The translations under genes and the position numbers were made by a program. Under the pieces are notes generated by a model. It saw nothing but the letters and a program-made list of their open reading frames with translations. It did not search any database and was not told the origin of the DNA. Positions 12,245 through 47,507 of a stretch of DNA of 64,000 nt are shown piece after piece. The stretch comes from Alphaproteobacteria bacterium (GTDB lineage: Bacteria; Pseudomonadota; Alphaproteobacteria; SP197). The stretch is from contig CBDAUZ010000002.1 in NCBI GenBank assembly GCA_965200745.1, positions 287,847-351,846 of the forward strand, given 5' to 3'. How positions within the stretch are numbered: position 1 is the first letter of the stretch; the number at the start of each line of letters is the position of its first letter.

Positions 12245-13401
12245 CCGTCGCGCCTGTCTACCTGGACTATCAGGCCACAACCCCAATCGACCCCGCGGCG
12301 CACGAGGCCATGTTGCCGTTCCTGAGAGATCTATTCGGTAATCCCCATTCAAAAGATCACAGCTTCGGTTGGGAGGCGGCGCGGGCGATCAAGGACGCTC
12401 GAGCAAACGTTGCGGGTTTGATCAATGCAGACGACGACGAGATCGTGTTCACCTCCGGCGCCACCGAATCGTGCAACTTGGCCCTCCGAGGGGTCGCGAA
12501 TCGTTCGGGCAACGGCCGGCGAAATCGAATCGTCACGCTGGCGACAGAACACCCGGCTGTGCTCGAGACGGTTCTGGACCTGGAGCGATCGGGCTTCGAC
12601 GCTATCGTGCTTCCCGTCGAGGCGGACGGTCTCCTGAATCTCGCCCACCTCGACAAGGTGATCGATGAACGGACCCTCATCGTCTCGGCGATGGCTGCGA
12701 ACAACGAGATCGGCGTGCTCCAGCCGAGTGCCGAGATCGCGGCCCGATGTCACGACGCCGGCGCACTGTTCCACACCGATGCGACCCAAGCGGCGGGACG
12801 GATCCCGATCGATGTAGACGACTGGGGCGTCGACCTCCTGAGCTTCTCGGGCCACAAGGTGTATGGACCGAAGGGCGTGGGCGCTCTGTTCGTGCGCTCC
12901 GGCGTGCAACTAAAGCCACTCATTACAGGAGGACCGCAAGAACGGGGGCTTCGAGCGGGAACCCTGCCCCCGGCACTCATTGCCGGGTTCGGCGCTGCAT
13001 GTGAGGTCGCCGTAGCGAGACAGGAGCAAGATCGTGTACAGATGGAGACGCTCACGAAACAACTCCATACGGCTCTGCTCGACGGACATCCTACATTGCG
13101 TCTGTTCGGACACGTCGAGAAGCGACTCCCCGGGAGCCTTAATGTCGGGTTCCCCGGGCTCGCGGCCGAGGAGGTGATCCGCAACATATCCGACCATGTC
13201 GCCGTATCGAGCGGTTCGGCATGCGCATCCGCAACATCGGAGCCCTCTAGGGTGCTGCTGGCATTGGGGCTCGACCCGGAGGTCGCCGCCACCGGACTCC
13301 GGATCAGTCTGGGCCGCTTCACGACGGCGCAGGATGTCGACCGTGCAATCGCAGCACTATCCAAGCTTGCACCCCTCGCTCAACTCCATCACAGAGCTTG
13401 A
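12241..13401 (+). CDS. Cysteine desulfurase (class V aminotransferase, IscS/NifS/DndA/SspA-like)
   Basis: MTVAPVYLDYQATTPIDP start (ATGA overlap with the upstream stop), PLP-lysine motif SFSGHKVYGPKG, active-site SSGSACAS. Confidence 0.88.
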   Translation: MTVAPVYLDYQATTPIDPAAHEAMLPFLRDLFGNPHSKDHSFGWEAARAIKDARANVAGLINADDDEIVFTSGATESCNLALRGVANRSGNGRRNRIVTLATEHPAVLETVLDLERSGFDAIVLPVEADGLLNLAHLDKVIDERTLIVSAMAANNEIGVLQPSAEIAARCHDAGALFHTDATQAAGRIPIDVDDWGVDLLSFSGHKVYGPKGVGALFVRSGVQLKPLITGGPQERGLRAGTLPPALIAGFGAACEVAVARQEQDRVQMETLTKQLHTALLDGHPTLRLFGHVEKRLPGSLNVGFPGLAAEEVIRNISDHVAVSSGSACASATSEPSRVLLALGLDPEVAATGLRISLGRFTTAQDVDRAIAALSKLAPLAQLHHRA

Positions 13402-13406
13402 TCACC

Positions 13407-15425: not shown

Positions 15426-16288
15426 GCGTCCCGTACACCGTCGAGGCAGTCGCTCCGGGACCCTCCAACGCGGTCCGCTCCCACGACCACCCCGTGCTCG
15501 AGTCAGGGAACCTTTCGTTTCCCGGTGGCCGTTATCTCTTGGACTTCCTTCCCCAAGAGAACCGCTCGTCATTTGTCATCACGCACCGGATCGAGGGCGC
15601 GGCCCTGATCAAGCGCATGCTGGAGGCTGGGCAGGCCCGATACGCCTGCGTAGTCTCTTCGCCGATCTCTTCGTATCGTCGTACGCATCTCTCGAGTGAG
15701 GCCCGGCACCAGGTGGGTTGGAACAGCGACGATCTCGGCGATCCACCGCTGTTCACGCCGATGATCCTCTGCGTCGAGCCGCAGACCATCACGATCGATG
15801 CGGATCGAGACGGCGTACATCGAATCTGGCACAAGCAGCGCATCGATGTACGGAAGGGCTCACGCTTGGCCCTCGGCAGCGTCTTCCAGCTCCAATCGTC
15901 GATTCTTCAGCTCCTGTCACTCGAAGAAGACACGCACCTTGGAGAAGGCCAGTTCTTTGTCGATGTGGGGGAAGAGCCCTTCCGCTTCCGTATCAAACTG
16001 AGCACGGAACTGCACAAATTCCTTCGCTTCCGGAAGGACCCCATCCGAAACCACATCATGACTCACATCGTGACGGCCTGCTTCGCACTGCTCCAGAAGG
16101 AGTACGCCAGCGATGACGGGGATACCGGGTGGCAATCGTTTGGTAACCTCCGGGCTCTGGCCGACCACCTCCAACACGAGGGGCATGTGGACTGGAGCGA
16201 TCAAGAATTTCATCCGGAGAGAGTCGCAACGGCGCTTTACCCGCACAAACTACCCACCGCCGATCTCGAGGCGGAGAGCGACGCATGA
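15422..16288 (+). CDS. Hypothetical protein (288 aa) with no recognisable motif, translationally coupled to the GHKL ATPase
   Basis: GTGA start/stop overlap with the upstream gene. Codon usage matches its neighbours. Confidence 0.6.
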   Translation: MSVPYTVEAVAPGPSNAVRSHDHPVLESGNLSFPGGRYLLDFLPQENRSSFVITHRIEGAALIKRMLEAGQARYACVVSSPISSYRRTHLSSEARHQVGWNSDDLGDPPLFTPMILCVEPQTITIDADRDGVHRIWHKQRIDVRKGSRLALGSVFQLQSSILQLLSLEEDTHLGEGQFFVDVGEEPFRFRIKLSTELHKFLRFRKDPIRNHIMTHIVTACFALLQKEYASDDGDTGWQSFGNLRALADHLQHEGHVDWSDQEFHPERVATALYPHKLPTADLEAESDA

Positions 16289-17148
16289 CATTCAAGGAGT
16301 TGAACGACGCGGAGTACGCCACGTTTCGAAAGGACCTACTTCGCGTCAAAGGCAGCGAACGTCAGACGAAGTTCCTCGGAATCGTCCGAAACAGCGACAC
16401 CTTCCTGGAGCACATGTCGGCCATCTCTACGGAAGGCGCAGTCGATGCAGCGCTCGCTGCCGAAGCGATGACGGAGAACGAGTACAAGGATCCACCGTCG
16501 AGTACCGAGCAAGTCCTGTACACCGCATGGTCTTCACTCACACCGGCGGTCGCTTGCCGCTCCACCTTCTGGGCGAACCTCACGATCGAACACATTCGGA
16601 CCGGCCGAATTCAATCCGCCTACTTGGCTGCCAATGGCGGCAATCTGGCCGGAGGTGCCGAGCGCATCGACTTCGTACTGGACGACACGTACGGTCAGGA
16701 GCCAAAGCAGATCGATAATTGCGTGCGTACCGTCCTGAGACGCCTCGGTGGCTTGCGAGAGGTGCGTGGCAACCGCTCGGTGTACGTCGACTGTCCATTC
16801 GCTCGCGCATGGTGGAGGGAACGCATCGCAACCCAAGCCGGAGGTGGCGACGAGGAAATGGCCTCCTGCGTGCGTACCATCCTCCGTACGAATCAGACGT
16901 ACTGGGAGAAGCTGATCGACCGAATCGTGTTCAGAAACTCGACATTCGGTTCGGAGAACATCCGTAGCGCGTTCGTGAGAGCACTCGCCCAGTGCGTGGA
17001 AACCAATCCATCATCGGAATTCACAAGCTCCACGGATTTGCAGCGGCTGTGCCGTCGCGTGACGACTTACCAGGGTGCCCGGGAACTCAGTATCTTGAGT
17101 CGCACCGAGCTGGATGACCTGATGAGGGCAGTGATCACCGAGGCATGA
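16285..17148 (+). CDS. Hypothetical protein (287 aa) with no recognisable motif. Last gene of the operon.
   Basis: ATGA overlap with the upstream gene. Coding-like composition. Confidence 0.6.
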   Translation: MTFKELNDAEYATFRKDLLRVKGSERQTKFLGIVRNSDTFLEHMSAISTEGAVDAALAAEAMTENEYKDPPSSTEQVLYTAWSSLTPAVACRSTFWANLTIEHIRTGRIQSAYLAANGGNLAGGAERIDFVLDDTYGQEPKQIDNCVRTVLRRLGGLREVRGNRSVYVDCPFARAWWRERIATQAGGGDEEMASCVRTILRTNQTYWEKLIDRIVFRNSTFGSENIRSAFVRALAQCVETNPSSEFTSSTDLQRLCRRVTTYQGARELSILSRTELDDLMRAVITEA

Positions 17149-27799: not shown

Positions 27800-28627
27800 T
27801 CATTCGTACCATCCTGTGGTCGACGTGCGAAGCGTCCGGAACTGCTTCATGTCATGGCCACACCAGACTTGTGCCTGAAGTTGTTGGGCGCGTTGGCGGA
27901 TCTTTGAGACGGTCCCGGCGGCTCGGGAAGGTGACAGGGAGTATCCGGCGGGACGGTATGGCGGCCCGAAGTTTTCGAGCGTAAACACGGCATCGGAAGC
28001 GAGTATTACATGTCCGGTTTCCGGCATGCAGATACTCAGACCCAGCATTCCAGCAGCGTGTCCCGCGTTCCAATTCAGTAACGTGATCGAGTTCGTCAGC
28101 CTGATCTCCGTGTCCTCTTCCTCGACAAGACACCATTCAAGTTCTTTCGTCAGCCACTGTGCCGTGTCCTTCCAGGCATAGGAACTGTCCGGATCCCGGC
28201 GGGCATGGTATGCGAGCGCCGTATCGCGTTCCGCGCGGTGAACAATGATCCGGGATTTTTCGAAAAACTCGACGCAACCTGCGTGATCGGAATGCATATG
28301 TGACAGGACAACCCTGTCAATATCATCGGGCCCGATTCCCAGTTGCTCGAGACGGTTTGGTAGATGGCAATCCTCGCCGTCGGGTCCGGCAAACCAGGGA
28401 TAGGAACGCTTGAACGACTCGGACCAGCGACCATTATCATTCATGGCAGCCGGATGGCATCCGGTATCGTAGAGCGTTCGACCATCCATCTCTTCGATCA
28501 GGTATCCAAGAATTGGGCAGATCATTCGTCCGCTGGATTCCGGATCAGCTTCCGCGAGATCGCCGAAAATCACGGCATTGTCCAGTTCCATACGACCAAG
28601 ATCGAGGACGAACAACCGGTTTCGCAC
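27800..28627 (-). CDS. MBL-fold metallo-hydrolase, N-acyl-homoserine-lactonase-like
   Basis: HxHxDH motif (LSHMHSDHAG). Size and N-terminus are typical of AHL lactonases. Confidence 0.75.
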   Translation of the reverse strand: MRNRLFVLDLGRMELDNAVIFGDLAEADPESSGRMICPILGYLIEEMDGRTLYDTGCHPAAMNDNGRWSESFKRSYPWFAGPDGEDCHLPNRLEQLGIGPDDIDRVVLSHMHSDHAGCVEFFEKSRIIVHRAERDTALAYHARRDPDSSYAWKDTAQWLTKELEWCLVEEEDTEIRLTNSITLLNWNAGHAAGMLGLSICMPETGHVILASDAVFTLENFGPPYRPAGYSLSPSRAAGTVSKIRQRAQQLQAQVWCGHDMKQFRTLRTSTTGWYE

Positions 28628-28662: not shown

Positions 28663-29943
28663 CTACGCGTCAGCCCGTGACTTCCAACCGTACCAGAGCG
28701 TTCTGGCCCGAACGCCAATTCCCAGGAAAGGCTGTGGCGGCAACAAGGACGGCCGCGAAAGTGTGCGAACATCATCGATCAGCGTTGATTCCGACCCCAT
28801 CGCGTACTCGGCGAGCAGTCTTCCGGAAATTGTTCCGCGTGCCAGCCCGACACCGCAATACCCAAGGGAGACAAAGACCCCGGGATCCAGGGAACCGAAA
28901 TGTGATGCCCAGTTACGGGTCATGCAAAAAACGCCAGCCCATGTTTGCTCGAACTGGAGAGTTCGCAATCCGGGATATCTCTTCAGCAGTATCTCCTTGT
29001 GCTTCTTTCGGAGTCGCTGCCGTTGATCGTCGGTGAGGCGAAACTGGTTCGAGTAGTATGTCCCGTAACGGACGAGCATGCGGTTGGACAGGGTTCGACG
29101 CATCGTCGTCGTACCGGTAATGCCCCATTCTGCGCTGCCGCCCACTGTGTCCTGTTCCTCATCGGTCATCGGTCGCGAGAGACTCGCACAGGCGATCATC
29201 GGGAAGACGAGGCGGCGAAGAAAGCCGAGTCTTGAGATAAACGCATTGGTTGTCAGCAGGACGTTCCCGGTCGTTACGCTGGCGTCCGTGCATTCAATTC
29301 GTACGGGTGAACCCGGTTCAACACGGCGTACAGATGTCTGTTCGCAGACTTCCACATTTTCGGGCAACGACTGGCCCAGTCCACGGCACAGGGCTGCGGG
29401 ATTCAGAAGAACTGTGCCGGGAGTCAGGATCGCAGCGCGATAGTATCCGGTACCGGTTATTGTTTTCAGAGTACTGCGGTCATACCAGACGTACTTGTTT
29501 TCCGAACCTTCCAGGAGTTTCCTGGTGTTGTTCAGGTGCTTTTCCCGTTCGGCCGTTACAACGGCTGTCAAGTGCCCGATTGGTGACCAATCGCATTCAA
29601 TCACATGTTTCCGAACGCAATCTTCCAGATGTTCACGCCCGGCTACGATCAACCGGGTAATTCGCCTGTTCTCTTCAGCGTTCAGATGTTCTGTGAGGTG
29701 CGGTGTGTCAATGACAAAACCGGCATTTCGACCAGAGGAACCGTATCCGATCTGATGCTCGTCAATCAGCAGAATACGCGCGTTCGGATCGAGTTCACCC
29801 AGTCTTCGTGCAGCAGCAAGACCGGTAACGCCGGCACCGACGACGACCCAGTCGGCCTTGTGTTCGCCCTTCAGACGACGCGGCTCTTCCGGTGTCGGGA
29901 GAACAGAATACCACCCGGATGCATGTCTTGTGTCGTCAGACAT
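28663..29943 (-). CDS. FAD-dependent oxidoreductase (DAO family, amine / gamma-glutamylputrescine oxidase-like)
   Basis: N-terminal dinucleotide-binding motif DWVVVGAGVTGLAAARRL, DAO-family length. Confidence 0.8.
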   Translation of the reverse strand: MSDDTRHASGWYSVLPTPEEPRRLKGEHKADWVVVGAGVTGLAAARRLGELDPNARILLIDEHQIGYGSSGRNAGFVIDTPHLTEHLNAEENRRITRLIVAGREHLEDCVRKHVIECDWSPIGHLTAVVTAEREKHLNNTRKLLEGSENKYVWYDRSTLKTITGTGYYRAAILTPGTVLLNPAALCRGLGQSLPENVEVCEQTSVRRVEPGSPVRIECTDASVTTGNVLLTTNAFISRLGFLRRLVFPMIACASLSRPMTDEEQDTVGGSAEWGITGTTTMRRTLSNRMLVRYGTYYSNQFRLTDDQRQRLRKKHKEILLKRYPGLRTLQFEQTWAGVFCMTRNWASHFGSLDPGVFVSLGYCGVGLARGTISGRLLAEYAMGSESTLIDDVRTLSRPSLLPPQPFLGIGVRARTLWYGWKSRADA

Positions 29944-29990: not shown

Positions 29991-30839
29991 TCATCCGAAA
30001 TCGAGATCTCGCAGGCTTTGGTGGACGTCTTTCGGGGCGACCGCAACATAGCGTGCCATGTTGTGTATGCTTGCATCACCGCCAATGCCGTATTCGGCGT
30101 CGTATCCATAGTCGTCATCATCATCGTTTTCGGTTCCAACACCACCTTCGTTTCCGGCCAGAAACACAACGCGGGTCTGCGGTTGCTTCGGATTGATCCG
30201 GTTGTAGGGGTGCCAGTTTCCCATGACCTTTGTCTTGTGCCTCGCCTGCGCCTTGTCGAGATATGCCGCAAGGGGTTCGACACCCCCTGCACGCGCAATC
30301 AGGTTTGGTTCGTCGCGCAGCACTTCAAAGGTGTCAAAGCCACGTGTGGACTTCCTCGCCAATTCATAATCGAGAACAACACCGTAACGCCGCGGAAGCC
30401 CGGATACGCCGGATTTGAATTCTTCAAACGGATAGATCGGAATCTCGGTATGATCCGGCAACCTGCCGTTCAGTAGATCGGCGGCTTCCTTGGCCGAGAT
30501 CTTGGCGGCGTATTGCCCGGTGTATCCGTCGTTGTTGTGCCGATTGACGTCTGCACGGTACGTTCTCTCAAATCGTTCTGGCGAGGCGAAGATTCCACCA
30601 CCGTGAACAACAACAATGACAATGTTCCCCCCCGGTGAGGTGACGACATTCTCTTCCGTGAATGATGTGAACCACGTGTTCCAGATTATGTTGTCGTAGG
30701 GCGCGTGTGTGCGGGCGTGAAGCAGTTGCGGCAAGGATGCCACAAATCCGTCCTCTCCCGCATACTCCAGAGCCATTCGCAACGCGTTGGGAACATGTGA
30801 GTCAAATACGATCTGTGCTTCCATCTCAATGTCATGCAT
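29991..30839 (-). CDS. Conserved hypothetical protein, paralog A of a tandem pair (function unknown)
   Basis: 282 aa, about 50-55% identical to the upstream paralog. Shared motifs include ALEYAG.DGFVAS.PQLLHAR, VIVVVHGGGIF and NPARYVAVAP. Confidence 0.7.
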   Translation of the reverse strand: MHDIEMEAQIVFDSHVPNALRMALEYAGEDGFVASLPQLLHARTHAPYDNIIWNTWFTSFTEENVVTSPGGNIVIVVVHGGGIFASPERFERTYRADVNRHNNDGYTGQYAAKISAKEAADLLNGRLPDHTEIPIYPFEEFKSGVSGLPRRYGVVLDYELARKSTRGFDTFEVLRDEPNLIARAGGVEPLAAYLDKAQARHKTKVMGNWHPYNRINPKQPQTRVVFLAGNEGGVGTENDDDDDYGYDAEYGIGGDASIHNMARYVAVAPKDVHQSLRDLDFG

Positions 30840-30868: not shown

Positions 30869-31789
30869 TCAGGTTCCGAACGAGAGATGGCGCACACCGG
30901 TCAACGGGCGTTGCGGTGCGACAGCAACATAGCGCGCCGGATTGATCATCGCCGTATCGCCACGGATCGCAAACTCTGCCTCGAGGGGCATGCGGTAATG
31001 TGTGGTCCAGGTGCCAGCGTAAGCCTGTTCGACCTTCGATAGTGGGCGGAACACGTCATTTTGGGGGCCACCTTCCTGACCACCAAGGAACAGTATTCTT
31101 GCCTGTTCTTCATCCGGGTCTATTTCGTTGAAATTGTGCCAGCTTCCCATCACCTCCGCAGTCCTTCGATCCCGGGCCCGATCCAGGTACAGCGACGCAG
31201 CTTCAACTCCACCCGCTCGCGCAATCATGAGAGGATCGTCCTTCAGTCGGTCAAATCTCACGTTACCGGAACAGGAGTCCCGTGCCGTTTCGAAATCCAG
31301 AATGGTGGCGTAACGATATGGCAATTTCCCCTCCTTGTCCTTGAATTCCTTGAAGGTGAAAACCGGTATCTCACGGTTGTCAGCGAGCTTGCCTTCCAGC
31401 AGGTCACGCGCTTCGACATCGCGAATTCTGGCGGCGAACAGGCCCGTAAACCCGATCTCGGAGTGACGGCTGGTACTCGCATGATAGAGGGCCCTGAATC
31501 TCTCGGGTGTCGAAAAAATTCCACCGCCGTGTACGACGACGATCACGTGATTGCCGTGTCGAGTCCGGATCACGTTCTCTTCACTGGTAGAAGTGAAGAA
31601 TCGGGTATTCCAGATTTCGTTATCATATGGGGCTCTGGACCGCGCGTGGAGAAGTTGCGGCATTGACGCCACAAACCCATCGTTACCTGCGTACTCCAGC
31701 GCACACCTGAGTGCTTCAGGTAAATACGAATCGAAGAAGACCGAGGCCTCCATACGCGATTGATCCATTTCGTCGTGCCTTGTTTCCAT
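30869..31789 (-). CDS. Conserved hypothetical protein, paralog B of the tandem pair (function unknown)
   Basis: 306 aa. Same conserved blocks as paralog A. Confidence 0.7.
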   Translation of the reverse strand: METRHDEMDQSRMEASVFFDSYLPEALRCALEYAGNDGFVASMPQLLHARSRAPYDNEIWNTRFFTSTSEENVIRTRHGNHVIVVVHGGGIFSTPERFRALYHASTSRHSEIGFTGLFAARIRDVEARDLLEGKLADNREIPVFTFKEFKDKEGKLPYRYATILDFETARDSCSGNVRFDRLKDDPLMIARAGGVEAASLYLDRARDRRTAEVMGSWHNFNEIDPDEEQARILFLGGQEGGPQNDVFRPLSKVEQAYAGTWTTHYRMPLEAEFAIRGDTAMINPARYVAVAPQRPLTGVRHLSFGT

Positions 31790-32046
31790 GTTGACCTGGG
31801 TCCCCTTGGGCTTTCAATTTGCCACACTCACTTTCGTTTCATGTTTGTTTTTCCTTCAACGATTATCAATCCATCACTTCTTTCATTGCCTGGGATCCGA
31901 TCACGATGGTTCCCGACAATCAACTTGAGACTCACTGTCATACAAGATGAGACGGTGGCGTCGCGTGCAGGGGATCGACTGAAGCAATCTGATTGAGCCG
32001 CAAACCGGTCAAGCAATCAGTCTTCCAGATGAACAGCGATCAATTC

Positions 32047-32066
32047 TTGATTGACTGATCAATCTA
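32047..32066. promoter_or_regulatory. Near-palindrome TTGATTGA-CTGA-TCAATCTA in the divergent intergenic region (candidate TetR-type or other repressor operator)
   Basis: 8 bp inverted arms (7/8 match) with a 4 bp spacer, lying within 120 bp of the hypB-like start. Several TGATCA motifs surround it. Confidence 0.3.
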
Positions 32067-32165
32067 TGATCACAATGAAATGAACTGATCGTGTCGAATC
32101 CGTACAAACGGCGTCTGATGCAGCCATGGCTGCAGATCTTCAGGAACCGGGGTACCGAATGAGAA

Positions 32166-33020
32166 ATGGGGTGTTTCCAGATGTGCAACGTGTGCGGTTG
32201 TGGCGAAATGCAGACCAAGATTGATGCAACGGATCCCCTCCACACGCACACCCAGCACCATCACTTTGGTCAGAATGCCGCCGGGGTCAGCGTCGCCGGT
32301 CTCGATGATGCACAACTGATCACGATTGAAGAGAACATACTCTCGAAGAACGACCAATATGCCGACATCAACAGACGTCGCCTGGCCAATCACCACATCT
32401 TCGCCCTGAATCTGGTATCGAGTCCTGGTGCCGGAAAAACGTCGCTCCTGGTCGAAACAGTCAAGGCGCTCTCGTCAGAAGTACCGTGCGCGGTCATCGA
32501 AGGGGATCAGGAAACGGCCTGCGATGCAGACCGAATTCGCGCGACCGGTGTAACGGCTGTCCAGATCAACACAGGCCGGGGCTGCCACCTCGATGCGCAC
32601 ATGGTTGGACACGCACTGGATGATCTCGATCTGGTATCCGGTGGAGTCCTGTTCATCGAAAACGTAGGGAACCTCGTTTGCCCGGCGCCCTTTGACCTGG
32701 GAGAATCCGGAAAGGTCGTCATTCTCTCGGTCACGGAAGGGGACGACAAACCACTCAAGTATCCCGACATGTTCGCCGCCGCCAAACTCATGGTGCTCAG
32801 CAAGGTCGATCTCCTGCCATACGTCGATTTTGATACCGACAAGGCTGTCGAACGGGCGCGACGCATCAATCCGGATCTGGAAATTCTGCAGGTTTCGCTG
32901 CGTGACGGAACCGGAATGACAGACTGGCTGCACTGGATATCAGAAGGTCGAAACAGGATGGCGGAACCGCCTCATCCCGACGGGACCCTGGTATCAGAAG
33001 GTCTGGAAACGCATGCATGA
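32166..33020 (+). CDS. hypB: HypB-like metallochaperone GTPase (nickel incorporation protein family; GhaB-like)
   Basis: N-terminal MCNVCGCG Cys motif and His-rich stretch HTHTQHHH, GTPase P-loop [17 protein letters not shown]-class G domain. Confidence 0.85.
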
Positions 33021-33432
33021 ACTGGCACTCGCACGCAGCCTGATCGAACTGGTCGACGATTATTCTGCCCATCATGGCGGGCGCGAGGTTCGGCGAATTC
33101 ACGTTCGTCTCGGACAGTTGTCCGCCATGACACGGGCGCTTTACTTCTGCTTCGGTTCTGCATCTCGCGGAACATGTTGCGATGGCGCCATGCTCGAGAT
33201 CGAAGAAGTGCCGCTGACCGTGAATTGTCGGACATGCCAGGCCGTCAAGACACCGAGTGGTCGTTACAACTTTCGTTGTCCTGATTGCGGAATGCCGACG
33301 CCAGAAGTCGTAACGGGACGGGAAATGCAGCTTACCTCCATAGAATTGGGGCCTGCGGGATCTGGCAAACGCGTCGGAACCGCCATCACCGAACCGACAA
33401 ATGGAGAGCTGTATGCCAACGGATCTCCCTGA
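33013..33432 (+). CDS. hypA: HypA-like nickel insertion protein (GhaA-like)
   Basis: [11 protein letters not shown]-terminus (the Ni-binding MHE motif) and a CxxC...CxxC zinc site. Overlaps the hypB stop. Confidence 0.85.
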
Positions 33433-34492
33433 AACCTGGGACTTCGTTCCCCATCAGCACCGTGGTCCGCATCGCGAAACTGCACCGGACGCACATATCA
33501 GGTCGCCGAGCAAGCACAATGGACCGTTCAAGGCACCGGGTCTCCGCACTTTCATGGCTGCGCCCTATTGCGAACCTGACAGGGACAAGGTTCGCGCCGC
33601 CGGTGCGAAAATCTGTTTTCTCGGCGCGCCCTGGGATCAGGGAACAATCGTACGAACGGGAACGTCGAGCGGACCACAAGGTGTCCGTGAAGCCTCAACG
33701 CATTATTTCCCGTACATGTTCGAATATGACGTTGACCTCATGTCTTTCTTCAGGGTTGTTGATTGTGGCGACATACCGATCGTCCCGGCCAACAATGCAC
33801 TCTCGCAAGCCTACATGTGCGATTACGTCACCGAGTGTCTGGAAGGCGGCGCCAAGGTAATACTCGTCGGCGGTGATCATTCGGTACCTATCCCCGGAGC
33901 GCGTGCTCTCTCCCGGTATCTGGACCGACACAAGCCCGAAGCGAAGATGGGCTACCTCCACATTGACTGTCACCTCGACGCTGCAGTCGATTGGGGAGGA
34001 ATCGAAATCACGAATGCATCCGGACCTCCCGAAGCGTTGAAACTGTCCAATTGCAATGCAGCCAACATGGCGCACATGGGCTCGCGCAACGGTCTCAATC
34101 CCAAGGACTGGATGGATTTCTGGATCGATAATGACATGCCGATCATTCCCATGTCGGCGATCGTTGAACGTGGGATCGAGCCCTGCACACGATTCATCTT
34201 CGATCGCGCCTGGAACGGTACGGAAGCGGTCTATGTCTCCTGGGATACAGATTCACTGGATGCAAGCTGCATGCCAGGAACAAGTTGTCCCGAGTGCTAT
34301 GGCATCAAGGCACGCGAAGCCATTCAACTCGCGCGTATCGCCGGAGAATACGGTGCCGACGTGCTTGAACTGGCCGAGCTTTCTCCGGTTTTTGATACCA
34401 GCCAGATCAGCACCAAGCTCGCCTGCAACCTGATTTATCACTTTCTCGGAAGTCGCGCGTCGACACTGCGCAGTCAAGGCAGACAGCCGTGA
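33401..34492 (+). CDS. Arginase/agmatinase-family ureohydrolase with intact metal ligands. Candidate Ni-dependent guanidine or guanidino-compound hydrolase.
   Basis: GGDHS, D-C-H-L-D (DxHxD) and SWDTDSLD motifs are present. Sits immediately downstream of the hypB/hypA-like genes. Confidence 0.8.
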   Translation: MESCMPTDLPETWDFVPHQHRGPHRETAPDAHIRSPSKHNGPFKAPGLRTFMAAPYCEPDRDKVRAAGAKICFLGAPWDQGTIVRTGTSSGPQGVREASTHYFPYMFEYDVDLMSFFRVVDCGDIPIVPANNALSQAYMCDYVTECLEGGAKVILVGGDHSVPIPGARALSRYLDRHKPEAKMGYLHIDCHLDAAVDWGGIEITNASGPPEALKLSNCNAANMAHMGSRNGLNPKDWMDFWIDNDMPIIPMSAIVERGIEPCTRFIFDRAWNGTEAVYVSWDTDSLDASCMPGTSCPECYGIKAREAIQLARIAGEYGADVLELAELSPVFDTSQISTKLACNLIYHFLGSRASTLRSQGRQP

Positions 34493-34547
34493 CTCACGCG
34501 TGGCGGACGTCGCATCGGGGATGTGCGTTACCCTGGGAGGAAGTCGG

Positions 34548-35594
34548 ATGAACCCTGCAAAGGCCTTCTTGCACCTTTTTTCACCTCTGGGTGGTGACGA
34601 AGCGGACAACTATCGATCACCAGGCCAGATTTCGTTTTTGCGGGCGCCATATGTTTCGTTGAGCAAGGAAGCCTTGCAGCAGACCGACGCAAGCTATGCA
34701 TTTCTCGGCGCACCCTATGATGAAGGCAACGTTGGCAAGCCAGGCTGTGAGGATGGCTCACGCGAGTTTCGGGTCGCGTCGCTCGACTACTTTCCATACT
34801 GGTTCGAGTTCAATGTCGATCTGCATGGCCGTGCCGTTGACTGTGGCGACGTACAAATGCCGCGGGTCAACCCGACGGTGGCCCATCAGCGAATATACGC
34901 CGCCGTCCGTACAGTCCTGGACGCCGGTTTGACGCCGATCATCTGCGGCGGTGACCGATCGATCTCGATTCCGGCGTCAAGGGCCCTGTCTGACCATCTC
35001 GGTACCGAACGCAAGATGGGTTACATGCACCTGGGTGCACATCTCGATATGGCCGATTCCTGGGCCGGTGAGCAGAATGTCAGCACCTGTGCTCTCGCAC
35101 GGATCACCGAGCTGGAAAACCTGAACCCCCGCAACGTTGCCCACATCGGTGCCCGCAATTCCTTCAATCCCAAGGACCATGTCGATCTGGCCCGTCATCG
35201 GGGAATTCGTTTCCATCCCATGTTCGAGGTGCTGGAACGGGGTGTCGCAGATGTCATGGACGAAGCGTGTACACGGGTCTGGGATGGAACGGATGGCCAG
35301 TATCTGAGTTTCAATTTCAATGTCATGGACTCATCCGCCGCACCGGGCGTCACGGCCACCGAATCAGGCGGGTTTGAAGCCCGCGAAATCATGCAGGTGG
35401 CAGCCAGGGTTGCAGAGCACGGAGGCCCATCTGTTCTCGATGTCACGGAACTCTGTCCGATGTTCGATGTCAGCGGCCAGACATCCCGTATGGCTGTCTG
35501 TGTCATCCTCAGGATCATGGCAGGCATTGCAGCGAAGGACGGCCAGACAATCGATGAAACCATCCGCCGACCTGGTTGGATGCACGGCGGTTGA
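34548..35594 (+). CDS. Arginase-fold paralog with degenerate metal site (probable pseudo-enzyme or structural partner)
   Basis: GGDRS (His to Arg), GAHLD (first Asp to Gly), and SFNFNVMD (two Asp to Asn) at the metal-ligand positions. Strong RBS GGGAGGAAG before the ATG at 34548. Confidence 0.8.
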   Translation: MNPAKAFLHLFSPLGGDEADNYRSPGQISFLRAPYVSLSKEALQQTDASYAFLGAPYDEGNVGKPGCEDGSREFRVASLDYFPYWFEFNVDLHGRAVDCGDVQMPRVNPTVAHQRIYAAVRTVLDAGLTPIICGGDRSISIPASRALSDHLGTERKMGYMHLGAHLDMADSWAGEQNVSTCALARITELENLNPRNVAHIGARNSFNPKDHVDLARHRGIRFHPMFEVLERGVADVMDEACTRVWDGTDGQYLSFNFNVMDSSAAPGVTATESGGFEAREIMQVAARVAEHGGPSVLDVTELCPMFDVSGQTSRMAVCVILRIMAGIAAKDGQTIDETIRRPGWMHGG

Positions 35595-35665
35595 ACGGAA
35601 CGAAAAAGTGCCAGGCAGAAACAAGGGAACCGGATTCCAACCAACCTGAAGAGGGACATCGACAA

Positions 35666-36757
35666 ATGACGAAACCATCGCAACCGACCTGGAGTACAGT
35701 GAGCCGCCGCACCCTTCTTTCGGGTGCCGCCGGAATTGCCGCGACAACAGCCCTGTTGCCGCGGTACGCACGCGCCGAAGGCGAACTCAATGTTCTCGTG
35801 TGGTGCGATCACGCCGATACAAAACTTCTCGAACCGTTCGAACAGGCACACGGCGTCAAGGTCAACGCCAAGACATATGAAGGGACCGGAACCGCACTGG
35901 CGATTCTCGAACAGTCTGCGCCGGGCGACTGGGACGTGATGGTGATCGATGCACCTGACGTCCCGCAAGTTGCCGACCTCGGTATTCTTGAAGAACTTCC
36001 CGAGGATATTGCCCCCTGGAACGATATTTTCCCGCAATTACGCGATGCGCCCTACACGCACGTCAACGGCAAGTCGTACGCAATTCCCGAAAAGTTCGGC
36101 TACTACGGCTTCTGCTACAACAAGGACGTGGTTGACCCGGCGGACGCCAGGCGCGGCGATATTGCCTGGAACGACAAGTACACGGGACGCATTGGTGTCT
36201 ACGACTACTATTTCCCGATCATCCAGATGATCGGGCTGTCCATGGGTCTCAAACCCGCGACGATCAAACGTGACGATCTCGGCGATATTCGCGAAAAACT
36301 CCTGGCCATGAAACCGAACGTCAAGATGGTCGGCGACATCGTCAGCGTCCAGAATGCACTGGTCACCGGATCGGTTGACGTGGTGGTCGGTGGCGCGGAG
36401 TTCACGGTATCCAATCTCATGCCGACAAATCCCGAACTTGACTGGGTTATCTCCGATGATGGTGGTCTGATCTGGAATCAGGGAATCGGTATCCTGAGCA
36501 GCAGTAACAGGAAGGAACTTGCTGCGGAGTTCGTCAAATGGATACTCAGCCCGAAAGGCCAGGGATTGCTGGCAACCTCCGAGTGCTTCTGGGCCATGCC
36601 CGCGAACGAGACCGCGGAACTCTCGACCGAAGAAAAGACAATCCTGCGGTGGGATGACCAGCCGGACTTTCTCGCGCGTTCGCAGGTGTCACTCCTTCCG
36701 GATCCGGAAATGGATGTGGAAATGCTCGATATCTGGACGGAGTTCCTGCAGGCCTGA
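35666..36757 (+). CDS. ABC transporter substrate-binding protein, PotD/PotF (polyamine) family, Tat signal
   Basis: SRRTLLSGAAGIAATTALLP twin-arginine signal, PotD-like length and sequence. Confidence 0.85.
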   Translation: MTKPSQPTWSTVSRRTLLSGAAGIAATTALLPRYARAEGELNVLVWCDHADTKLLEPFEQAHGVKVNAKTYEGTGTALAILEQSAPGDWDVMVIDAPDVPQVADLGILEELPEDIAPWNDIFPQLRDAPYTHVNGKSYAIPEKFGYYGFCYNKDVVDPADARRGDIAWNDKYTGRIGVYDYYFPIIQMIGLSMGLKPATIKRDDLGDIREKLLAMKPNVKMVGDIVSVQNALVTGSVDVVVGGAEFTVSNLMPTNPELDWVISDDGGLIWNQGIGILSSSNRKELAAEFVKWILSPKGQGLLATSECFWAMPANETAELSTEEKTILRWDDQPDFLARSQVSLLPDPEMDVEMLDIWTEFLQA

Positions 36758-36890
36758 GTTCACAGTTGATTCCGGCGGAGAGCAATACAGCCAGTATTCT
36801 TCACCTTTCGCGGCCACTGACTGATTACACCCCGCTGGACAGATCACACAGACAGGAAAGACCTGAGATATAGACCGGCGAAAGTACGCT

Positions 36891-37751
36891 TTGGGAGGGA
36901 GCGACAAATTCGGGGGTGTCTCCCTGACGCGATGGGCGATCTATCCAGCGCTGATTTTCTCGCTGCTGTTTTTCGTGACTCCGTTTTTGATCATGGTCGC
37001 CGTCGGATTCTGGCAGCGCCTGCGCGGACGACTCGAAGCAACCTGGACATTCGCCAACTACGAAAAATTCCTTACGCGGGACTACCTCGTCGAGGCACTT
37101 TTCAATTCGATAGAAGTAACGGTGCTGACAACGGTCATCAGCATTCTGGTCGCGTACCCGCTGGCATACATACTGGCCTACCGCATATCGCTGCGCTGGC
37201 AGAAAATTGTTCTCGTTTTCGCGGTGTTGCCATTCTGGACCGCCTATGTCGTGCGTTCCTACAGTTGGCTTCTCGTGCTGTCGGACACGGGCATCATCAA
37301 TTCAAGCCTGTTGTCGATCGCACTGATCAGCGAACCGCTGACGCTGGCTTACACGCGTGGCGCAACGATCCTCGGTTTTGTCCACTTCTTCACCATGCTC
37401 CTGACGCTGACCATTTACGCGAGTCTGATCCAGATCCCGCGCTCACTTCGCGATGCGGCTTCAGATCTGGGTGCAACCGGATTTCAGGTGTTCCTCAGGA
37501 TAACCCTGCCCCTCAGCATTCCAGGCGTGGCTGTCGGTGCCTTCCTGACGTTTGTCATCACGATTGGTGACTACATCACACCCCAGATCCTCGGTGGCAA
37601 CACGGAGGTCCTTATTCCGCAGGCCATCATGCTGCAGATCTCCCGCTCTGCGAACTTTCCGATGGCCTCTGTCATGAGTGTCACCCTCATGATCGTGGTC
37701 GTCTGCGTCTATTTCGCATCCGCGCGCTATCTGAAGATGGATCGAATCTGA
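36891..37751 (+). CDS. ABC transporter permease (PotB-like)
   Basis: 6-TM permease with an EAA-loop region. Confidence 0.85.
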   Translation: MGGSDKFGGVSLTRWAIYPALIFSLLFFVTPFLIMVAVGFWQRLRGRLEATWTFANYEKFLTRDYLVEALFNSIEVTVLTTVISILVAYPLAYILAYRISLRWQKIVLVFAVLPFWTAYVVRSYSWLLVLSDTGIINSSLLSIALISEPLTLAYTRGATILGFVHFFTMLLTLTIYASLIQIPRSLRDAASDLGATGFQVFLRITLPLSIPGVAVGAFLTFVITIGDYITPQILGGNTEVLIPQAIMLQISRSANFPMASVMSVTLMIVVVCVYFASARYLKMDRI

Positions 37752-38542
37752 TGAGCCGCCTGATCGGTAACATGACCGTGAGTGGTTATCTGTTGCTGGC
37801 GCTCGGATTTATCTATCTGCCCGTCGTTATCCTCGTGCTCTTCTCGTTCCAGAACGGGGACTTGCCTGTCCCACCCTTTGATGGTCCGGGCTTGCGCTGG
37901 TATGCCAAGCTGTTCGCCAATGAGCGTCTCCTCGACGCCCTCGTCAACTCCGTGGCCGTCGCGGTGCTTTCAGCACTCGTCACGACAATTCTGGGATTTC
38001 TGGCCGCCTACAGCCTGTCCAGAACCCCGGTCAAATTCCCGGGCACAGCGCGCTTCCTGCTGATTGCTCCGATCACGGTATCCTATCTGATTATCGGGAT
38101 GGGATTGTTGACGACCTTCAATGTTGTTGGCATCTCGAAGTCGCTGTTCGCGGTCGGCATTGGCCATGTTGTCATCAATCTGCCCCTGGCTTTCGCTATC
38201 ATCTATTCGCAGATGAGCGATCACCACAAGAACATCGATGCCGCTGCACACGATCTGGGCGCCAGCGATCTCCAGACCATCATCCTGGTTTCCCTGCCGA
38301 TGATGAAGGTGCCACTGCTTGCAGCGTTCTGCCTTTCTGCAACTCTCTCCTGGGACGAGTTCATCGTCGCTTTCCTGCTCAGCCGATTTGAAGTGACTCT
38401 ACCCGTCATCATTTTCGAAATGTTGCGTGCCGGTCTTACACCCGAAGTGAATGCTGCCGGAACCGTCGTCTTTGCCATTTCCATGAGCATCATCCTGATC
38501 GCCGCCGTCACTCTTCTGTTCAGACGCGGAGACGGACGATGA
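37751..38542 (+). CDS. ABC transporter permease (PotC-like)
   Basis: Permease sequence. Start overlaps the upstream stop. Confidence 0.85.
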   Translation: MSRLIGNMTVSGYLLLALGFIYLPVVILVLFSFQNGDLPVPPFDGPGLRWYAKLFANERLLDALVNSVAVAVLSALVTTILGFLAAYSLSRTPVKFPGTARFLLIAPITVSYLIIGMGLLTTFNVVGISKSLFAVGIGHVVINLPLAFAIIYSQMSDHHKNIDAAAHDLGASDLQTIILVSLPMMKVPLLAAFCLSATLSWDEFIVAFLLSRFEVTLPVIIFEMLRAGLTPEVNAAGTVVFAISMSIILIAAVTLLFRRGDGR

Positions 38543-39609
38543 GCCAACCGCTGGTCAGATTGCACGACGTTCGCAAGGTCTATGGCAATCTGGTCGCACT
38601 CGACAATGTGAATCTGGCTATAGACCAGGGACAGTTCGTTGTTCTTCTCGGACCGTCCGGAAGCGGCAAGACGACGCTGCTCTCGATACTCGGCGGATTC
38701 ACGACACCGACATCCGGTCGGGTCATGATTGACGGTCAGGATGTGACATCGACTCCCCCTGCGCGACGCCCGACAGTCACGGTCTTCCAGGATTACGCCC
38801 TGTTTCCGCACATGAGTGTTCGCGACAACATCGGGTTCGGGCTTGCGATGCGCAAGGTGTCCAGATCCGCGCGCTACCGACGCGTGGAAGAGGTTCTGGC
38901 CACAGTCGGTCTCGAAGGCCTCGGCGAAAGAAAAATTCACCAGCTTTCAGGCGGTCAGCGCCAGCGCGTTGCCTTGGCCCGGGCCATTGTGGTTGAACCC
39001 GCGGTCCTGTTGCTCGATGAACCCCTGGGTGCTCTTGATCTGAAGATCAGGCAGCAAATGCAGGAGGAACTGGTTCAGATCCAGCGGCGAATTGCAACAA
39101 CATTCGTACACGTCACCCACGACCAGGACGAGGCCATGAACATCGGTGATATCGTCGTCGTGATCAACAATGGCTCCATAGAGGACGTCGGTCCGCCTGA
39201 GCGGGTTTACCTCAGGCCAGCCAGCCTGTTCACCGCCAGATTCATGGGTGACAGCAACATCCTTTCCGGCAAGGCAATTTCGGGGAACAGTGAACTAACA
39301 GCAATCGAAACCGCTCTCGGGTTTCTGACTGTTCGTGGTTGCGCCGAGACCGGATCAACGGCGCATCTGTCCGTCAGACCAGAGCACATCAGAGTGGGTT
39401 CTTCGGATCAGGAAGACATGATTTCGCTGGGCGAGGTCATCATCCAGGATATCGTGTTTCAAGGCGCACATCGGCGATGCCATGCCCGTTCCGGAACCAG
39501 TCAGGAGATCGAACTGTTGTTGCGTCTGCCAGCAGAGCAGTCGTTGACTCCGGGGGAAACCGTTCCCGTTCATGTACGGGCGCACGATCTTGTCCTGTTG
39601 CAAGACTGA
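38539..39609 (+). CDS. ABC transporter ATP-binding protein (PotA-like, with C-terminal TOBE/regulatory domain)
   Basis: Walker A GPSGSGKTT, LSGGQRQRVALARA, Walker B LLLDEP. Confidence 0.9.
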   Translation: MSQPLVRLHDVRKVYGNLVALDNVNLAIDQGQFVVLLGPSGSGKTTLLSILGGFTTPTSGRVMIDGQDVTSTPPARRPTVTVFQDYALFPHMSVRDNIGFGLAMRKVSRSARYRRVEEVLATVGLEGLGERKIHQLSGGQRQRVALARAIVVEPAVLLLDEPLGALDLKIRQQMQEELVQIQRRIATTFVHVTHDQDEAMNIGDIVVVINNGSIEDVGPPERVYLRPASLFTARFMGDSNILSGKAISGNSELTAIETALGFLTVRGCAETGSTAHLSVRPEHIRVGSSDQEDMISLGEVIIQDIVFQGAHRRCHARSGTSQEIELLLRLPAEQSLTPGETVPVHVRAHDLVLLQD

Positions 39610-39675
39610 TCGTGTCGTGGATTCCCTATCCATCCGTCTGCGAGCATTGCGGACCAGCGTGAGAGCCGCATAACG

Positions 39676-40323
39676 ATGCCTGACAACCGGTCACGAAAGA
39701 GAAATGCCCGGGCGGATGCCGTACTGGAGGTTGCTCTCGATCTCTTCTCTACCAAGGGCTATGCCGAAGTCACGATGCAGGAAATCGCACTGCGTGCAGA
39801 TACCACCTATTCCCTTGTGTACTACTACTACAAGAACAAGGAGGACCTGTTTCACGCAGCGGTGTCCTATGCGGTCGATCAGGCAATCGAGAACTACAAC
39901 CGGATCAACGCGGAGAAACACGCGTCACCGGTCGAACTGATCAACAATTGGCTCGAGAACAACATTACCTATTCGGAACCGCTCAAACGTGCTGTCAAGA
40001 TCATGTTCGAGTACTCTGACAAACGTGACGAATCGCCGTCCGTCGCAAGCGACATTGAATACTTCTACATGATCGAACGAAAGCTTCTGACCGACGGAAT
40101 ACGTCTCGGCGTGGAACAGGGTGTGTTCACATGTCATTCACCGGAAGACATTGCAGCATTTGTTTCGACCCACATCGACGGCATTTTCTATGGTGCCCTG
40201 GTTCGTCCCGAGCTGGACATCGAAACGGCAATGCAAGAACTCAGATCCATCCTGTGGCAGCTTCTCCGGTTTCAGCCTGAATCGTGCAGTCGGAACCGGT
40301 GTTCCCCGGAAACAGACAACTGA
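39676..40323 (+). CDS. TetR/AcrR family transcriptional regulator
   Basis: N-terminal HTH: LEVALDLFSTKGYAEVTMQEIALRADTTYSLVYYYYKNKEDLF. Confidence 0.85.
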   Translation: MPDNRSRKRNARADAVLEVALDLFSTKGYAEVTMQEIALRADTTYSLVYYYYKNKEDLFHAAVSYAVDQAIENYNRINAEKHASPVELINNWLENNITYSEPLKRAVKIMFEYSDKRDESPSVASDIEYFYMIERKLLTDGIRLGVEQGVFTCHSPEDIAAFVSTHIDGIFYGALVRPELDIETAMQELRSILWQLLRFQPESCSRNRCSPETDN

Positions 40324-40395
40324 GTGGCACGACAACCATGACTCATCGATTATCCTGCATGGGGCCGGAACAGGACGGTCAAGGGAGAACCTGCC

Positions 40396-40878
40396 ATGTG
40401 TAACGGATTGACGCATCTTGATCGTGACGGACGTGCGCGAATGGTTGACGTCTCGGCAAAGGACCGGACTGACCGAACCGCTGTAGCCGTTGGCAGAATC
40501 TTCATGCAACCGACAACACTCCGGGAAATCGCAAAAGGGTCGATCCCCAAGGGTGATGTGTTTGCTGTTGCCCGCATCGCCGGCATCATGGCGGCGAAAA
40601 ACACGGCAAACATGATTCCGCTGTGTCACCCTCTGAGTCTCTCGTCAGTGAAGGTCGAACTTGCAGCCAACGAGACCGATTCCTGTGTCGATATTTCCGC
40701 GACATGCAGCGTGAGCGACCGAACCGGCGTGGAAATGGAATCACTTGCTGCCGTTTCGATTGCTGCGCTGACAATCTACGACATGTGCAAGGCAATCGAC
40801 CGCGACATGGTTATCGGTGATGTTTGTCTGGTTGAAAAGCGCGGAGGCCGGACGGGAAGCTGGCAGCGCGAACGATGA
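40396..40878 (+). CDS. moaC: Cyclic pyranopterin monophosphate synthase
   Basis: MoaC sequence ([19 protein letters not shown]...). RBS AAGGGAGAA. Confidence 0.9.
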
Positions 40879-46361: not shown

Positions 46362-47507
46362 TCATGACCGTTCGATGCTCGTGAGAATGTAACGCGCAAA
46401 GTCCAGATTTTGCTTCTCCAGCCAGCTTAACGGGCCCGGTTTTGCGAGCGGTGCGCGGACGCCGTTATAGAGGTCTTCCACGACAACACGGTCTTCTTCG
46501 TTTGTCCTGTCGAGAAAGCGCTTTGCTTCCGCAATCTTCTCGTCGACGTTTTCTGTATCGTCCATGACTTCCGGAGCAAACGCGAGACCATAGAGAACGT
46601 CGATCTCCCCTGGCGACCGCGGTTGCAGACTCAGATACCAGAGATGATCCGGTCCCAACACGAACATGTGGCATGGATAGACGGTTCCGAGGACCGATGT
46701 ACGGCGCCTCTTGCCCCGTAGCCGCTTGTTGGCGCGATGCGCGGTCCCGACAGGTGCGTCACTGTCCTTGGTAAACCACTGGTGGGTATAACCGTCACCA
46801 GCCTTCCCGAACCGTGTGTCGTCCACCGGAAAATAGGCACCGACCGTCTTTCGATGTGTAAACGGAAGATGATATCCTTCCATGAAATTCTCTGTGAGAA
46901 GCTTCCAGTTTGTCTTCCAGACGTGTTCCTGTCGGTCAACTTCCACGTAGTCTGATGCGTGATAGGGACGCATAATCCGTTCAAGACCGGCAAGTCTCCT
47001 CTCCGGTTCGGGAATTTCCGGGTTCATCGTGACGTAGATCCAGCCCTGCCACACGGCACACCTGATCTCCGGCAACGCCAGCGCCGTCTTATCAAACAGA
47101 CAATTTTCTTGCATGTGTTGCGCGGCGACGAGCCTGCCGTCAATCTCATACGTCCAGGCGTGATAGGGGCAAACGATTCGACGACATTTTCCCTTGCCGC
47201 TCACAAGCTTCATCATCCGGTGAAGGCAAACATTCGAGAGTGCCCTGATCGAACGATCACGCTGCCTGATGACGATGACAGGCTGCCGGTTCAAACGGGC
47301 AGTTATGTACTCTCCTGGCTCGCTGATACTCTCGGCCCGCCCAACGCAATGCCACTCCCGGCCGAAAATCCTCTCCCATTCAAGGTCAAGAAATTCTTGT
47401 GAGGAGTAGACTTCAGGCGGCATTGTGCGTGCACAGGCGGGTTCGTTCCCGATGTTTCGACGCATCGACTTGACGATGAGATGAATTTCCGACGACATGA
47501 CCTGCAC
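46362..47507 (-). CDS. Rieske [2Fe-2S] domain oxygenase, stand-alone alpha-subunit-like (GbcA/demethylase-type)
   Basis: CLHRMMKL...CPYHAWTY Rieske motif and a catalytic mononuclear iron domain. Confidence 0.8.
   Translation of the reverse strand: MQVMSSEIHLIVKSMRRNIGNEPACARTMPPEVYSSQEFLDLEWERIFGREWHCVGRAESISEPGEYITARLNRQPVIVIRQRDRSIRALSNVCLHRMMKLVSGKGKCRRIVCPYHAWTYEIDGRLVAAQHMQENCLFDKTALALPEIRCAVWQGWIYVTMNPEIPEPERRLAGLERIMRPYHASDYVEVDRQEHVWKTNWKLLTENFMEGYHLPFTHRKTVGAYFPVDDTRFGKAGDGYTHQWFTKDSDAPVGTAHRANKRLRGKRRRTSVLGTVYPCHMFVLGPDHLWYLSLQPRSPGEIDVLYGLAFAPEVMDDTENVDEKIAEAKRFLDRTNEEDRVVVEDLYNGVRAPLAKPGPLSWLEKQNLDFARYILTSIERS

Follow-up and report, generated by a model that had tools for sequence, protein, structure and literature searches.

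Heteromeric Ni2+-dependent ureohydrolases of the MefH/DmgH family were characterized in three papers from 2024 (PMC10927577, PMC11271267, PMC11399263). In these studies, the two arginase-fold chains, α and β, co-purified, neither was active alone, and α alone was largely insoluble; crystals and cryo-electron microscopy revealed a dimer of αβ2 trimers, i.e., an α2β4 hexamer, in which Ni2+ is confined to α while purified β is metal-free. The active-site cavity of α is capped by the N-terminal 23 residues of β, the docked substrate is buried by Y22 and F82 of β together with W192 of α, and the β subunits of MefH and DmgH can be exchanged with only slight effects on specificity. MefHαβ, also named MfmAB or MetCaCb (Aminobacter niigataensis MD1, Aminobacter sp. 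NyZ550, and Pseudomonas mendocina MET-2; 8RYI, 8X3G, 8SNF, 8SNK, and 8SP2), hydrolyzes metformin, while the pre-anthropogenic activity of the family is the hydrolysis of N,N-dimethylguanidine by DmgH, described for A. niigataensis DSM 7050 and for a Hyphomicrobium homolog that is ~70% identical. Here, we analyze a gene at 34548-35594 on the forward strand of a 64-kb stretch of alphaproteobacterial DNA (hereafter, the window), and we conclude that it very probably encodes the metal-free, noncatalytic β subunit of a heteromeric Ni2+ ureohydrolase of this family. The phenomenon as such is already known, as metal-free partner subunits have been published for homologs since 2024; MefHαβ is the closest solved system.

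The open reading frame (ORF) of the β gene is intact. It extends from an ATG at 34548 to a stop codon at 35592-35594, encodes 348 amino acids, and is preceded by the Shine-Dalgarno sequence GGGAGG (34535-34540, forward strand, as read from the sequence) 7 nt before the start codon; public assemblies carry the identical protein as a called gene (cluster P0001). The product is 36% identical over 313 amino acids to its upstream paralog (BLASTP, E = 8e-70), and the Pfam Arginase domain PF00491 spans both proteins end to end. A preliminary description of the locus, made from the sequence alone, had presented the gene as a catalytically degenerate paralog that lies next to the intact enzyme and retains its fold as well as a strong ribosome-binding site, and our analyses bear this out in each respect. 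The motif replacements are exactly those described, i.e., LVGGDHSVPIP in α reads ICGGDRSISIP in β, HIDCHLD reads HLGAHLD, and SWDTDSLD reads SFNFNVMD. With the solved α subunit as the reference (ligands H158, D183, H185, D187, D276, and D278), the loss of "at least four" of the six metal ligands becomes exactly four, with His replaced by R137 and three Asp residues by G163, N256, and N258; H165 and D167 are kept in β, and the upstream α keeps six of six. The structure-informed alignment that had been proposed as a check left the ligands where they had been placed. Replacement of three to five of the six ligands in β has been described by Li et al. and Sinn et al., and the window β fits this pattern.

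Sequence and structure both place the protein among the solved β chains. Using phmmer against the PDB, the best match of β was subunit B of metformin hydrolase (8ryi_C, E = 2.8e-159), followed by the α chains (E = 1e-60), while the upstream protein matched subunit A (E = 9e-166). The identity to metformin hydrolase (PmMefH) amounts to 63.5% for β and 65.5% for α. An AlphaFold2 model of β has a predicted TM-score of 0.82, and confidence is low at residues 1-19 and 62-86, which are the loops at the inter-subunit interfaces of the crystal structures. In a Foldseek search of the PDB with this model, ranks 1 to 10 were all β chains (8X3G, 8SP2, 8SNF, 8RYI, and 8SNK) with TM-scores of 0.80-0.91 and 59-63% identity, followed by α chains (34-35% identity) and then by the homomeric Ni2+-dependent guanidine hydrolases 7ESR and 9FEK.

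A protein search recovered >300 β-type clusters at E ≤ 1e-20, and scanning a single genome for each GTDB species identified at least 108 loci. We retrieved 80 of these for analysis, and the conservation counts refer to the 82 β and 80 α orthologs that they contain. The order hypB-hypA-α-β is found in nearly all of the 80 loci, and in 80 of 82 cases the gene immediately preceding β is that of α, the gap between the two having a median of 40 nt (55 nt in the window). The β ORF is intact in all 82 (343-356 amino acids), and the degenerate columns are shared, with Arg in 82 of 82, Gly in 78 and Ser in four, Asn in 81, and Asn again in 82, while the ligands of α are kept in 78-80 of the 80 orthologs. 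Because the same columns are conserved across the β orthologs while α keeps its ligands, the ligand losses in β are not due to chance. Both subunits have ratios of nonsynonymous to synonymous substitutions (dN/dS) of 0.03-0.07 (Nei-Gojobori, pairs with unsaturated dS), and the mean column identity of β is 78% in a 40-sequence alignment. As a possible proxy for the 2:1 ratio of β to α, we compared ribosome-binding sites: a Shine-Dalgarno core of at least 5 nt precedes 44% of the β genes versus 0% of the α genes, a comparison in which the α starts were confidently placed in only 13 loci. That β is a decaying duplicate, i.e., a functionless pseudogene in progress, would agree with the loss of four catalytic ligands; however, the intact ORFs and the dN/dS values refute this, and the gene has its own strong ribosome-binding site while growth on the substrate is lost when the homologous metCb is deleted, so that we attach next to no probability to it. 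The idea of a maintained pseudoenzyme in the preliminary description, which had named degradation in relatives as an argument against itself, is thus strengthened: the degenerate pattern is conserved, and every β gene examined is intact and under strong purifying selection.

Several observations indicate that β is maintained together with α. The pairwise distances of α and β are correlated with r = 0.93, and the mean divergence of the two subunits is equal (0.29-0.30). Among the most conserved regions of β is the N-terminal loop, in which M1, N2, K5, H9, L10, F11, S12, P13, R23, and P25 are invariant in the 40-sequence alignment. In the same alignment, F82 is invariant, and N21 and Y22 are conserved in ≥90% of the sequences; across the loci, Y22 is present in 80 and F82 in 75 of the 82 orthologs, and the window β itself has both. 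Thus, β co-evolves with α and is maintained as a subunit, with the strongest constraint on the parts that touch the α pocket. A different explanation is that β is an independent enzyme or ligand binder with a remodeled site comprising R137, H165, D167, and D261 and that the adjacency of the two genes reflects pathway coupling rather than a complex. The replacement residues are invariant (R137 and N258 in 82 of 82 each), which could mean a new functional site, H165 and D167 are kept in most sequences, and MetCb alone forms a soluble homohexamer. However, MetCb contained no metal according to mass spectrometry with an inductively coupled plasma and had no metformin hydrolase activity, the crystal structures have neither metal nor ligand density in β, and H165 is replaced by Gln or Asn in 10 of the 82 orthologs. 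The tight co-divergence with α and the co-purification seen in four different homolog pairs also argue against an independent function, which we regard as very improbable.

The conserved N-terminal loop also bears on the possibility that β is mainly a nickel-delivery adaptor that docks HypA/HypB or an allosteric or regulatory gate to α. Tassoulas et al. considered it possible that the disordered N-terminal loop of β gates the substrate and docks HypAB, and hypBA almost always adjoin the pair. On the other hand, in one study using E. coli extracts, the activity of the recombinant complex did not change significantly when the chaperones were co-expressed, while β was indispensable and improved the solubility of α. 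Moreover, β outnumbers α 2:1 as a structural part of the hexamer, and the exchange of β between MefH and DmgH had only minor effects. We consider an adaptor or gate unlikely as the main function, although somewhat less so than an independent enzyme. Among the roles offered in the preliminary description, that of a hetero-oligomer partner agrees with the published biochemistry and four crystal structures of homologous β subunits (MefHβ/MfmB/MetCb). "Substrate-binding subunit" is apt only insofar as two aromatic residues of β help to bury the substrate in α, and a role as a regulator found no support.

The genes upstream of β complete the picture of a nickel enzyme. The α subunit, a catalytic arginase-fold ureohydrolase with six ligands, is encoded at 33413-34492 (forward strand) and was assigned based on the match to PDB subunit A and its ligand and pocket motifs; its start is better placed at 33413 (359 amino acids, in agreement with public gene calls) than at 33401. 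Upstream of α on the same strand lie genes for a HypB-like nickel GTPase, or metallochaperone (32166-33020; Pfam cobW/HypB/UreG, E = 7e-22; NCBIfam TIGR00073, 289 bits against a cut-off of 121), and a HypA-like nickel metallochaperone (33013-33432; Pfam HypA, E = 8.5e-28; NCBIfam TIGR00100, 91 bits against a cut-off of 88). The reading frames overlap by 8 nt between the hypB stop and the hypA start and by 20 nt between the 3' end of hypA and the start of α. Judged by gene content, the adjoining hypB and hypA, which the preliminary description did not mention, would mark the enzyme as nickel-dependent. In public records, the members of the cluster are labeled "agmatinase/arginase family protein." This label was not adopted, nor was arginase or formimidoylglutamase: α and β score 116-117 bits against the NCBIfam agmatinase model, below its cut-off of 174, and far under the cut-offs for arginase and HutG. 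The NCBIfam scan returned no model for the family and none that separates α from β.

The window locus shares with MefH the tandem α/β arginase-fold genes after hypB and hypA, an α with six Ni2+ ligands, and a β of 348 amino acids with the replacements of His by Arg, Asp by Gly or Ser, and two further Asp residues by Asn, with the N-terminal capping loop, and with Y22 and F82. It differs in that the window α has T288-S289-C290 and T80 where MefH α has N288-S289-A290 and Q80 (MetCa numbering), in that the window β keeps H165 where MefHβ has Gln, and in that the locus is chromosomal, in an alphaproteobacterium of the metagenome-assembled genome (MAG) type, and is accompanied by a PotD-type ATP-binding cassette (ABC) importer, while MefH is linked to HupE/UreJ and CodB. 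A metformin hydrolase in the strict sense was rejected, as the window α has C184 but not N288-S289-A290 and is only 65.5% identical, against a criterion of ≥90%. Activity of the window pair toward metformin is not expected, because it was absent or 20,000-fold lower in homologs with 62-71% identity. With DmgHαβ (A. niigataensis DSM 7050, clade I; Hyphomicrobium HVZ03923/HVZ03924, clade II), the window pair shares the heteromeric Ni2+-dependent architecture, the operon core, and a non-anthropogenic, chromosomally encoded, and widely distributed occurrence, and hydrolysis to urea and an amine is the likely type of reaction. The identity to Aminobacter DmgH is only 63.7% (α) and 63.5% (β), and the α pocket differs from both DmgH clades at positions 80, 190, 200, 289, and 290. 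By the DmgH pocket criteria (S184 and S-T-S in clade I, C184 and T-T-A in clade II, Q80, P190, and C200 in both), the window α, which belongs to a separate clade and has T80, V190, A200, S289, and C290, was not assigned to DmgH; this lowers the likelihood that it is DmgH but not that it works like DmgH.

More distant systems share parts of this architecture. RsMetCaCb from a Rhodospirillales MAG (MBT3556719/MBT3556720) is a marine pair that purifies as a heterohexamer and lacks metformin activity; it differs in lineage, with PGTTAPE in α and a β that keeps the first His (GGDHS), reads SIDMNVMD, and has lost three ligands. GdmH (Synechocystis Sll1077, 7ESR/7OI1) and the comammox guanidinase (Nitrospira inopinata, 9FEK) are Ni2+-dependent arginase-fold enzymes with HypA/HypB-type activation and are the next-best sequence and fold matches at ~27% identity to the window β; unlike the window pair, they are homo-oligomeric and encoded by single genes without a degenerate partner. 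Finally, Tassoulas et al. drew a parallel to the carboxyguanidine deiminase CgdAB, likewise an enzyme of guanidine pathways, in which only one of two homologous chains keeps the catalytic or metal residues; fold and family are unrelated, and the parallel is one of analogy only.

By its α motifs, the family separates into three groups. Clade I has D[S/A]HLD…ITNCSG…PGSTSPE; Aminobacter DmgH belongs here, and so does MefH, a derived branch with DCHLD…PGNSAPE; clade II has DCHLD…xTNCSG…PGTTAPE and includes the assayed Hyphomicrobium DmgH; and clade III, to which the window pair belongs, has DCHLD…ITNASG…PGTSCPE. In a reciprocally rooted α+β neighbor-joining tree with 200 bootstraps, the split between α and β has 100% support, clade III 100% (α) and 99% (β), and clade I 100% and 82%, respectively, while clade II is unresolved. 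In one locus (L076, 7217-8260), α reads AWNDGAG versus PG[TS][ST]xPE in all others, and the locus is ~260 nt longer, which suggests a frameshift or an assembly error in the MAG. According to their record titles, clade III sequences come mostly from marine or sponge-associated MAGs (Arenicellales, Thiotrichales, "Poriferihabitaceae," and deep-ocean and sea-cave bins). In comparison with clades I and II, α of clade III carries D29A, Q80T, P190V, and C200A, the last three in 41 of 41 sequences each, and T289S in 38 of 41; position 290 is Cys in clade III, Ser in clade I, and Ala in clade II. Among these, Q80 and 288-290 are pocket or specificity positions named in the family papers, position 200 adjoins the catalytic N199, and position 190 is near W192. 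N199, W192, and E320 are unchanged.

For clade III, a small alkylguanidine is the most likely substrate. Since N,N-dimethylguanidine is used by both non-metformin relatives that have been assayed, which come from two divergent clades, we take this compound by analogy as the default guess for the window enzyme, a guess about as apt to fail as to hold. The members assayed belong to clade I, to clade II (Hyphomicrobium, PGTTAPE), and to the divergent RsMetCaCb lineage, whereas clade III appears in the supplementary alignments with one sequence (Sinn et al.) or nine (Li et al.), none of which was assayed.

Five points count against our reading. The two ligands kept in the window β, H165 and D167, may leave a residual mononuclear site. 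The window α combines C184 with T-S-C at 288-290, while Aminobacter DmgH has S184 and S-T-S and MefH has C184 and N-S-A; as the specificity positions fit neither assayed enzyme type, the substrate assignment is weak. Our literature search returned no paper, from 2024 or later, in which any clade III member, the window pair included, was assayed. In eight genomes, a clade III pair is accompanied by a second pair, which speaks against functional redundancy: in seven, the second pair is of clade II (L005/L063, L014/L059, L006/L061, L020/L043, L044/L054, L029/L047, and L032/L050), and in the eighth (L035, 2500-9038), a divergent pair lies ~4 kb from the clade III pair, with a second β that shows a different degeneracy (SFDMNIMD and HFGAHLQ). 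In the data of Li et al., the Rhodospirillales MAG that encodes RsMetCaCb likewise carries a clade III pair (MBT3556733/MBT3556734). Lastly, urease genes neither adjoin the pair nor occur elsewhere in the 64-kb window, which is also devoid of genes for dimethylamine utilization or amine catabolism; this is unlike the clade II, DmgH-type locus L063 (4728-15250), where genes for an NMT1-type substrate-binding protein (SBP) and an ABC ATPase lie upstream and genes for a urease α subunit and an N,N-dimethylformamidase-like protein (DMFA2-like amidase) lie downstream. The context of L063 fits urea and dimethylamine metabolism.

Together with these points, the tree raises the question of whether clade III is a functionally distinct, third type of heteromeric Ni2+ ureohydrolase that acts on a natural guanidine other than N,N-dimethylguanidine or metformin, e.g., another alkyl- or amino-alkylguanidine from marine or sponge habitats. 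This alternative contests only the substrate and not the role of β. Clade III is monophyletic in both subunits, its identity to the other, assayed clades is no higher than 62-74% for α and 56-73% for β, some of its changes affect pocket or specificity positions named in the literature, and it coexists with a second pair in the genomes listed above. Also, its loci have a PotD-type importer and a TetR-family regulator as opposed to the NMT1-type SBP, urease, and DMFA2-like amidase at L063. However, the same ABC family is found at five clade I-like loci in which α has the DmgH motif PGSTSPE, suggesting a similar cargo; DmgH activity is common to two clades that are only ~69% identical and thus tolerates much divergence; the substitution T289S in DmgH raised the activity toward dimethylguanidine without changing specificity; and N199, W192, and E320 of α as well as Y22 and F82 of β are unchanged. 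We consider a distinct substrate a real possibility, if on the whole a doubtful one, and retain N,N-dimethylguanidine as the default for the window enzyme.

The genes that follow β on the forward strand point to substrate import. They encode a PotD/PotF-type periplasmic SBP of an ABC importer (35666-36757; Pfam SBP_bac_8/1/6/11), the nearest solved structures of which are spermidine/putrescine-binding proteins (E ~1e-15); a first permease (36891-37751; BPD_transp_1 on the identical gene of locus L001, syntenic and 64-83% identical in clade III loci); a second permease (37751-38542; weak BPD_transp_1 on the L001 gene, syntenic); and an ATPase with a TOBE domain (38539-39609; ABC_tran and TOBE_2 on the L001 gene, syntenic). 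Clade III loci almost always have such an importer (SBP, two permeases, and ATPase) after β, with an SBP identity of 58-85%; in a few, it lies upstream of the pair instead. The same transporter family occurs with the five clade I-like loci mentioned above (L049, L058, L072, L080, and L081), where the SBP is 63-66% identical, which argues for a related cargo. The importer is followed by a gene for a TetR-family regulator (39676-40323, forward strand; Pfam TetR_N, E = 4.5e-15), a candidate repressor of the module. Counterparts with 41-69% identity occupy the equivalent place in many clade III loci, and in Aminobacter-type loci the gene lies before hypB.

By homology, we suggest that one α and two β subunits would form a trimer and two trimers the α2β4 hexamer, an assembly to which the co-divergence of α and β (r = 0.93) lends indirect support. 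The chaperones HypB and HypA, whose genes lie immediately upstream of α and are coupled to it in translation, would load two Ni2+ ions into α only. β would keep α soluble and folded, and its N-terminal loop with Y22 and F82 would cap the α pocket and help to bury the substrate. Because β would be needed for both the solubility of α and the capping of its pocket, neither subunit would be active alone. In this model, which for hexamer assembly, nickel dependence, and capping draws on the published homologs, the complex would hydrolyze a small N-substituted guanidine at a C-N bond, yielding urea and an amine, the substrate would be imported by the adjoining PotD-type ABC system, and the module would probably be under the control of the adjoining TetR-family regulator.

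The finding mainly corrects annotation, as both genes are publicly described as "agmatinase/arginase family protein." It also shows a distribution of the module far beyond the 56 pairs or "few dozen" sequences of earlier reports, with >300 clusters of β and loci in genomes numbering at least 108. Clade III is distinct, abundant in marine MAGs, and has been catalogued before; in the published work, the natural source of dimethylguanidine was called "elusive," and the natural substrates were acknowledged as unknown. The activity of a representative would show how wide the substrate range of the family is and which natural pool of alkylated or methylated guanidines sustained the scaffold that gave rise to metformin hydrolase. 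If it is true that clade III uses another guanidine, the identity of that compound would reveal a new marine route for the turnover of guanidine nitrogen.

Regarding the control of the module, a promoter and terminator scan of 31500-40600 gave nothing above the shuffled expectation; therefore, the operon boundaries were inferred from gene spacing and overlaps alone. An Rfam gathering-threshold scan of both strands of the whole 64 kb had zero matches, i.e., no tRNA, riboswitch (the guanidine riboswitch included), or small RNA. The intergenic region upstream of hypB (32040-32145) contains short palindromes centered on TGATCA (32050-32143) that could be an operator, perhaps that of the TetR-family regulator. 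The motif TTGAYTGATCAA from upstream of hypB was absent from the 81 fetched loci, of which the most similar may not cover this region. Divergent from hypB lie two tandem paralogs on the reverse strand (29991-30839 and 30869-31789) that are 51% identical (E = 9e-103) and match no Pfam or NCBIfam family, and they adjoin genes for a DAO-family FAD oxidoreductase (28663-29943) and, sub-threshold, an AhlS-like lactonase of the metallo-β-lactamase fold (27800-28627). These divergent genes were rejected as pathway partners, as they lie next to α/β in no other locus and are probably unrelated.

Elsewhere in the window, two genes on the reverse strand encode α subunits of Rieske/ring-hydroxylating oxygenases (6917-8245 and 46362-47507); their surroundings are housekeeping genes (trpEGDC, moaC/moeA, lexA, gltX, gltA, lpxABI, bamA, rseP, dxr, and cdsA). 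A probable defense island of the DNA phosphorothioation type is located at 9052-17148 on the forward strand. It comprises genes for an HSDR_N-domain protein (9052-10140), an SspD-like protein (10478-12244, a weak match), a DndA/SspA cysteine desulfurase (12046-13401; PADLOC, E = 6e-141), PDC-M33A (13398-15425, E = 9e-35), PDC-M33B (15422-16288, a weak match), and a DUF6339 protein (16285-17148). Over 10-20 kb, the GC fraction rises to 0.60-0.62, compared with ~0.55-0.57 elsewhere in the window.

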